Sequence record: L00023.1
Source of the DNA: a phage
Reading direction: 5' to 3' (one strand)
Length of the DNA: 368 bases
Shown here: in pieces, positions 1 to 368 of the stretch
Layout of the letters: every line of letters starts with the position of its first letter
Position numbering within the stretch: the first letter of the stretch is position 1
Made by a program: the position numbers and the translations under genes
The notes under the pieces: generated by a model
What the model saw: only the letters and a program-made list of their open reading frames with translations
Databases searched by the model: none
What the model was told of the DNA's origin: nothing

Positions 1-82
1 TCAAACACCAGCACGGTGGGACGTGGTTCAGAAGGTGTAGCTGCCAGACAAGGTGTATTCCCGTCTGCAGGTTGGTAGCCAT
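1..82 (-). CDS. murI: Glutamate racemase MurI, N-terminal fragment (5' partial; continues beyond window start); reading frame interrupted by an apparent 1-nt indel near 62-67
   Basis: Minus-strand ATG at 82-80 gives MATNLQ. After a one-base frame jump the translation continues DGNTPCLAATPSEPRPTVLVF to the window edge, matching the N-terminus of E. coli MurI as recalled. An alternative in-frame ATG lies at 94-92 (MRQSMATN...). No strong Shine-Dalgarno is evident. The murI start overlaps the btuB 3' end by about 56 nt, as known for this locus. Confidence 0.6.
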   Translation of the reverse strand, partial: MATNLQTGIHLVWQLHLLNHVPPCWCL

Positions 83-122
83 AGACTGTCTCATAATCTT
101 TGTCGAACAGGTTGGCTATTTT
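28..122 (-). CDS. btuB: TonB-dependent vitamin B12/BF23/colicin E outer-membrane receptor BtuB, C-terminal fragment (about 31 codons), cut off upstream at the phage junction; same apparent 1-nt frameshift as murI
   Basis: Minus-strand translation from 122 downward gives KIANLFDKDYETVYGYQPA. After a one-base frame shift it gives REYTLSGSYTF and a TGA stop at 30-28. This matches the recalled BtuB C-terminus and the typical TonB-dependent receptor terminal beta-strand ending in Phe. The reading frame is broken at about 123-128 by lambda core sequence (in-frame TAG at 128-126). Confidence 0.65.
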
Positions 123-129
123 ATACTAA
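115..129. other. Hybrid att core (attL-like crossover region): GCTATTTTATACTAA, 14/15 identical to the lambda common core GCTTTTTTATACTAA; overlap region TTTATAC at 120-126
   Basis: Direct match to the recalled lambda core. The single mismatch (A at 118 where lambda has T) lies in the left core-type half-site. Sequence to the right is lambda P' arm; sequence to the left is btuB/murI, not the lambda P arm. Confidence 0.8.
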
Positions 130-133
130 GTTG
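125..133 (-). promoter_or_regulatory. Core-type Int binding site C' (bottom strand CAACTTAGT)
   Basis: Plus-strand ACTAAGTTG at 125-133 is the reverse complement of CAACTTAGT, which fits the lambda core-type consensus CAACTTNNT, at the right edge of the overlap region. Confidence 0.7.
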
Positions 134-154: not shown

Positions 155-167
155 TATCAATTTGTTG
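155..167 (+). promoter_or_regulatory. IHF binding site H' of the lambda P' arm
   Basis: TATCAATTTGTTG matches the IHF consensus WATCAANNNNTTR and sits between core and arm-type sites, as in lambda attP/attL. Confidence 0.7.
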
Positions 168-174
168 CAACGAA

Positions 175-205
175 CAGGTCACTATCAGTCAAAATAAAAT
201 CATTA
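175..205 (+). promoter_or_regulatory. Arm-type Int binding sites P'1-P'2-P'3 (tandem, about 10-bp spacing)
   Basis: AGGTCACTAT (176-185), CAGTCAAAAT (186-195) and AAAATCATTA (196-205) resemble the arm-type consensus (C/A)AGTCACTAT. Exact site boundaries are approximate. P'3 overlaps the int stop codon. Confidence 0.75.
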
Positions 206-368
206 TTTGATTTCAATTTTGTCCCACTCCCTGCCTCTGTCATCACGATACTGTGATGCCATGGTGTCCGACTTATGCCCGAGAAGATGTTGAGCAAACT
301 TATCGCTTATCTGCTTCTCATAGAGTCTTGCAGACAAACTGCGCAACTCGTGAAAGGTAGGCGGATCC
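203..368 (-). CDS. int: Lambda integrase Int (tyrosine recombinase), C-terminal 55 codons plus stop; 5' partial, continues beyond window end
   Basis: Minus-strand translation from 367 gives DPPTFHELRSLSARLYEKQISDKFAQHLLGHKSDTMASQYRDDRGREWDKIEIK with stop TAA at 205-203. This matches the recalled lambda Int C-terminus. By the standard lambda Int numbering (356 aa), the active-site residues are His308 (352-350), Arg311 (343-341), His333 (277-275) and the nucleophile Tyr342 (250-248). Confidence 0.93.
   Translation of the reverse strand, partial: DPPTFHELRSLSARLYEKQISDKFAQHLLGHKSDTMASQYRDDRGREWDKIEIK

Follow-up and report, generated by a model that had tools for sequence, protein, structure and literature searches.

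In lambda integration, the Int recombinase makes its first cleavage on the top strand, at the overlap edge nearest the P arm, and its second on the bottom strand, 7 bp away. The point of exchange is not variable within the overlap, because Int cuts at these two fixed edges. Besides its usual attachment site, lambda uses secondary attachment sites, which are reportedly the subject of the genetics of Shimada, Weisberg and Gottesman and of the studies of Ross and Landy (1983) and Rutkai et al. (2003). Among the genes that can be hit is btuB, formerly called bfe; cells that lose it become resistant to phage BF23 and to the E colicins. The attL that forms when lambda enters such a site, in btuB included, belongs to an already known, indeed textbook, kind of event.

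The window, that is, the whole 368-nucleotide stretch of DNA that was analysed, is very probably a junction of this kind: an attL (B-O-P') left when Int, acting at a weak secondary site, inserted a lambda prophage into the 3' end of btuB. Two parents, each fully known, contribute to it, and their matches overlap at the att core. Positions 1-123 find the end of btuB, together with the start of murI, in every one of the 5,426 complete E. coli genomes examined, and positions 115-368 are 99.6% identical to lambda (J02459) 27724-27977, with A118 as the sole mismatch. The lambda side proper, 124-368 (J02459 27733-27977), runs through C', the IHF site H', P'1-P'3 and the 3' end of int up to a BamHI site. 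In K-12 coordinates the insertion lies at 4165387, in codon Ile585 of btuB. The window is organized as follows.

1-118, minus strand: B-side host arm, consisting of the 3' end of btuB from E. coli, assigned from the genome matches, an alignment with K-12, O157 and ESDR8, and a check of frame and codon.
30-28, minus strand: the stop codon, TGA, of the btuB coding sequence, which is read from the junction to this point (frame check).
82-80, minus strand: start codon, ATG, of murI, located inside the btuB coding tail, with the gene running to position 1.
113-121, plus strand: B-type core site for Int, degenerate in sequence (TGGCTATTT) and contributed by btuB, from comparison with B and C.
119-123, no strand: crossover interval TTTTA, the same in btuB and lambda (-4 to 0), from a base-by-base table.
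120-126, plus strand: 7-bp overlap TTTATAC, of phage type by base-by-base comparison (TTTACCA in native btuB).
125-133, minus strand: the C' core-type Int-binding site of lambda, intact (CAACTTAGT), an exact match.
155-167, plus strand: a pattern match, TATCAATTTGTTG, which fits WATCAANNNNTTR and lies at +32 to +44 from the core centre; from established knowledge of attP we take it to be the IHF site H' of the P' arm.
176-185, 186-195 and 197-206, plus strand (+53 to +83): exact matches to arm-type Int sites, identified as P'1, P'2 and P'3 in that order, again from established knowledge of attP.
203-367, minus strand: 3' end of lambda int, with its stop at 205-203; the translation gives the C-terminal 54 residues, which end in TFHELRSLSARLYEKQISDKFAQHLLGHKSDTMASQYRDDRGREWDKIEIK and include the catalytic tyrosine motif ASQY.
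363-368, no strand: BamHI site GGATCC (lambda 27972-27977) at the end of the window, from the sequence match.

The BamHI site is evidently a cloning boundary. The int gene itself is annotated in J02459 at 27812-28882 on the complementary strand. The same entry (locus L002, 391-431) carries an Int site labeled 'int 4' at 27814-27854, equivalent to window 205-245; the consensus matches for P'1-P'3 fall at lambda 27785-27815, and this old annotation seems to be offset by about 30 bp.

To place the crossover, native btuB (K-12, O157 and ESDR8) and lambda attP were fetched and compared with the window base by base. The uninterrupted btuB site reads GGCTATTTTACCACGAAC (over a longer stretch, in the orientation of the window, ...GAACAGGTTGGCTATTTTACCACGAACTGTCA...), and lambda at the matching stretch reads ...TCGTTCAGCTTTTTTATACTAAGTTGGCA... 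Within the core, window 115-129 is GCTATTTTATACTAA and lambda is GCTTTTTTATACTAA, with a single difference, at A118. The sequence is unambiguously that of the host through 118, where lambda has T; TTTTA at 119-123 is common to both parents and hence ambiguous; and at 124 the window has the T of lambda where btuB has C, after which it follows lambda throughout. The junction consequently lies between 118 and 124. GCT at 115-117 is also common to lambda and btuB. Host DNA is colinear up to 123, and the joint has neither gained nor lost bases, the parents overlapping by TTTTA. The phage side is likewise contiguous, with C', H', P'1-P'3 and then int at the expected offsets.

These results bear directly on the original prediction, which was made before the parents had been compared. 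It had held that the core at 115-129 departs from lambda only at 118, and this is so against J02459. It had read A118 as part of a btuB ATA (Ile) codon; the base is in fact the middle base of the Ile585 codon (minus strand, 119-117), in the correct frame. Its deduction that host sequence reaches at least 118 agrees with the presence of a native A there in K-12, O157 and ESDR8, its estimate that lambda sequence is certain from about 124 agrees with T124, and the overlap TTTATAC at 120-126 is intact base for base, as it had stated. The switch between parents falls within the 118-124 interval that it had proposed, and native btuB does resemble the overlap, TTTACCA being identical to TTTATAC in its left four of seven positions. 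The prediction had also placed the exchange inside the overlap, at a secondary site with partial homology. The secondary site and the partial homology stand, and in a genetic sense so does the location, but as a mechanism it is better put as exchange at the left edge of the overlap, which the four matching bases would stabilize, since Int cuts at fixed edges. Judged from the aligned parents, the T-to-A 'change' in the core is native host sequence.

The insertion costs BtuB its last ~30 codons. The insertion, at 119-123, is only ~40 bp upstream of murI and separates that gene from any promoter within or upstream of btuB. Elsewhere in the host arm, two differences from K-12 flank a PstI site (65-70). 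One is a C missing after position 64 (GT-CTGCAG in the window, GTCCTGCAG in K-12) and the other is at position 71, which is G in the window and in ESDR8 and T in K-12. The 1-bp deletion would shift the frame of the btuB tail and also that of the start of murI, an essential gene whose product would begin MATNLQTGIHL... in place of the native MATKLQDGNTP...; because it disrupts both reading frames, the missing C is most likely an early sequencing error rather than a real mutation.

The genes that lie beyond the junction offer a clue to the origin of the fragment. On the host chromosome the order is btuB-murI-rrnB-murB-birA-...-tufB-rplKAJL-rpoBC, and the stretch from btuB to rpoBC matches what is carried by lambda rifd18, a defective transducing phage that reportedly arose from a lysogen in which lambda occupied bfe. 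In 1981 Brosius et al. are said to have cloned the rrnB operon from lambda rifd18 as a 7.5-kb BamHI fragment, giving pKK3535. When the corresponding BamHI fragment is reconstructed from the 245 lambda bases of the window and K-12 sequence up to the next BamHI site (in murB), its length is exactly 7,508 bp. From this fragment-length test, together with the background on the phage and plasmid, the window most likely represents the end on the lambda side of the rrnB BamHI fragment (7.5 kb) of lambda rifd18/pKK3535, and its source most likely a cloned fragment of the 1980s. A junction-spanning record is absent from the 5,426 complete E. coli genomes, 50,697 phage records and 72,556 plasmid records searched, which fits a laboratory lysogen or construct. 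A search of the literature on rifd18, bfe and pKK3535 yielded no description of the junction; all that it turned up was Taylor & Burgess 1979 as a cited reference and work in which pKK3535 was used. The main consequence is one of annotation, in that the sequence would correctly be described as a laboratory-derived hybrid rather than as a natural genome feature.

The plasmid search also returned three PLSDB entries (NZ_CP082339.1, NZ_CP104294.1 and NZ_CP068597.1) that match the lambda attP region at ~99%. Their lengths, 48,499-48,502 bp, are the exact length of the lambda genome, and they are assigned to Salmonella enterica, Stenotrophomonas maltophilia and Paenibacillus sonchi. These 'plasmids' are probably lambda control DNA that was assembled and deposited as such.

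How good a target for Int the btuB site is bears on whether Int made the junction at all. An Int-independent origin would be illegitimate recombination, with the two DNAs joined through the microhomology of TTTTA, for example as the novel joint that arises when a transducing phage is excised aberrantly. The 5 bp shared at the junction are compatible with such an event, and the fragment probably does come from a transducing phage, which contains one illegitimate joint. Overall identity to the core also leaves room for it. The native btuB site is identical to the 15-bp core at 9/15 positions, with +1 to +3 of the overlap mismatched, and this degree of identity is not rare in the gene: it is seen in 11 of its 15-mers, with 15.5 expected by chance. 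Raw identity was for this reason dropped as a measure of significance, and a weight matrix was built instead from 40 recurrent secondary sites (found in two or more samples, attB excluded) in Table S1 of Tanouchi & Covert 2017 (PMC5605937). On this matrix native btuB scores 7.7 bits, as against a median of 15.6 for the real sites and 19.1 for attB, and only 4-7 of the 40 recurrent sites score below it. Even so weak a score places the site, which is co-oriented with the phage core, in the top 0.06-0.17% (6e-4 to 1.7e-3) of 99,952 background positions from 50 kb of K-12. Within the gene its rank is 1-5 of 3,690 positions, varying with the span of the matrix. It is first with a matrix of -12 to +12 and third to fifth with shorter ones, so that it is not the best site in btuB on every matrix.

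The individual positions show where the site is weak and where it conforms. It is without the conserved T at -5, having A118 instead, and without the conserved A at +5; among the 40 recurrent sites the base at -5 is T in 33 and A in three. In the overlap, the recurrent sites agree with lambda at -3 to 0 in 38, 38, 33 and 29 cases, respectively, and are barely conserved at +1 to +3 (15, 16 and 10). The btuB site matches at -3 to 0 and is mismatched at +1 to +3, a pattern that is the commonest class among the recurrent sites (9/40). The homology at the joint is thus of the modal Int-dependent kind, and this, like the rank of the site on the matrix, argues against illegitimate joining. So does the position of the lambda breakpoint, which coincides with the Int overlap and its cleavage sites to within 6 of the 48,502 bonds of the phage genome (~1e-4). 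Moreover, it is established that in a transducing phage of the gal type the illegitimate joint is at the other end of the insert and not at att. Illegitimate joining is therefore very improbable.

Int-mediated insertion at a poor site leaves the question of why that site should have been recovered. The btuB junction site is absent among the more than 300 sites mapped by NGS in PMC5605937; the btuB site that Tanouchi & Covert do list is another one, which lies close to the gene's 5' end and was found in a single sample. Insertion into btuB is directly selectable, and it may be for this reason that a weak site was recovered, with one of the gene's best Int targets being the one used. Table S1 of PMC5605937 (rows rrsA, rrsB, rrsC and rrsG) also gives GCTTCTTTAAGGTAAGGAGG, a secondary site that recurs where several 16S rRNA genes end (3'). 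Its copy in rrsB, just downstream and only a few kb from the btuB site, was found in 6 samples and is a much better Int target.

The left half of the btuB site had been singled out by the original prediction as degenerate relative to lambda C. The degeneracy is real, as TGGCTATTT at 113-121 matches C (CAGCTTTTT) at 6/9 positions, but the comparator was not the right one, because an attL calls for comparison with the B site of attB. Against the canonical B site (CTGCTTTTT) the match is also 6/9.

A different way to account for A118 is to regard it as a T-to-A mutation at -5 of the lambda core, or as a sequencing error, with the true crossover further to the left, between 114 and 115. The probable sequencing errors in the host arm (the base missing after 64, and G71) give this some footing, as does the GCT at 115-117 that lambda and btuB have in common. 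Nevertheless, A is native to btuB at this position in all three strains compared, so that an extra event is unneeded, and a crossover to the left of 115 would be outside the Int cleavage sites; this explanation is exceedingly improbable. An in vitro chimera, in which btuB and lambda DNA were ligated during construction of a library or plasmid and never formed a prophage junction, is extremely improbable as well: the window does end at a BamHI cloning site and its junction is missing from the genome, phage and plasmid records searched, but the junction itself lacks a restriction site, the parents overlap by common bases exactly at the att core, and the 7,508-bp BamHI fragment is colinear between its two ends, the BamHI site of lambda and the next one on the chromosome.

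If the junction was made by Int at the btuB secondary site, as is very probable, the way in which the exchange was completed can be considered. Previous work has indicated that the arm sites fix the order of strand exchange, that the first cleavage is on the P-arm side, and that a lambda Holliday junction containing heterology needs host processes for its resolution (PMC2817482). In the window the top-strand cut would fall between 119 and 120, which is inside the junction interval, and the bottom-strand cut between 126 and 127, which is excluded from it. Consequently, the overlap in this attL is that of the phage, which is what the top-strand lineage would give.

The steps can be proposed as follows. 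The attP intasome would have captured the btuB sequence GGCTAT-TTTACCA-CGAAC, the hyphens marking the edges of the overlap; this much can be read from the DNA. Int biochemistry would then have the first exchange occur on the top strand at the left overlap edge, between 119 and 120, where the matching TTTA (-3 to 0) would permit swapping and ligation, and would have the three mismatches at +1 to +3 hinder the second, bottom-strand exchange. Completion might come about by host processes or replication that resolve the Holliday junction, or by a rare full exchange that leaves a heteroduplex overlap, which then segregates. Either way, the top-strand lineage would yield an attL with host sequence to -5/-4 followed by the phage overlap TTTATAC, and this is the arrangement found in the window. 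In attL, the only junction that the window holds, these two routes look alike, and we therefore infer both that the exchange was reciprocal and how the Holliday junction was resolved.

Of these routes, the one in which only the top strand is exchanged, with the Holliday junction then resolved by replication or host enzymes and Int never completing the second exchange, is a tentative suggestion, with rather less than an even chance of being correct. The site has neither the T at -5, which belongs to the CTT triplet of the B site, nor the A at +5, and has three consecutive mismatches in its overlap, yet the junction has a clean phage overlap, which would fit exchange of the top strand only. If this is indeed what happened, the junction could record how Int integrates at a barely usable site, and if in addition the matching attR kept the host overlap, a classical laboratory lysogen would provide direct sequence evidence for that route.

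The attR predicted for the top-strand lineage has the host overlap and would read P arm...CAGCTTT-TTTACCA-CGAACTG; in the Int model it is P-arm...TTCAGCTTT followed by TTTACCACGAACTGTCA, the latter with the host overlap, or would end in ...TTTATAC-CGAACTG if mismatch repair had converted the overlap. These predictions affect how excision is viewed. The suggestion that the degenerate B site weakens excision is plausible from the sequence, in that the left half scores 1.3 bits when derived from btuB and 7.8 in attB. However, the main obstacle to excision probably lies elsewhere than in the B site. Having gained the lambda overlap and the C' site, the full core of the hybrid attL reaches 16.3 bits nonetheless, and the predicted attR would have the weaker half-site (right half, -0.8 bits; total, 12.4-13.9). 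In addition, the overlaps of attL and attR would differ at +1 to +3 in either replication lineage, and the heterology that hampered integration would thereby be recreated for excision.

Taken together, these features relate the btuB junction to known systems at three levels. As a fragment, the window shares with lambda rifd18/pKK3535 (reportedly) the BamHI end in int, the continuation through btuB, murI and rrnB, and the length of ~7.5 kb; single-base discrepancies such as those by the PstI site are characteristic of chemical sequencing in its early days. As an attL, it has the same P' arm, C' site, overlap TTTATAC, adjacent int and layout of host half and phage half as canonical lambda attL (BOP', from the gal-bio attB). 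It differs in that the host half of the canonical site is the B arm of attB, replaced here by btuB sequence, and in that the overlap of the parental host site matches that of the phage at 4/7 positions in btuB and at 7/7 in attB. As a secondary site, it likewise has the C at -7, T at -6, T at -3 to -1, A at 0, A at +6 and G at +10 of other lambda secondary sites, and is weaker than most of them, in keeping with its bit score and the bases missing at -5 and +5. The A at -5 does have a classical counterpart, since the secondary site in proA (GCTAATTTATAC) has A at this position, like the site in btuB.
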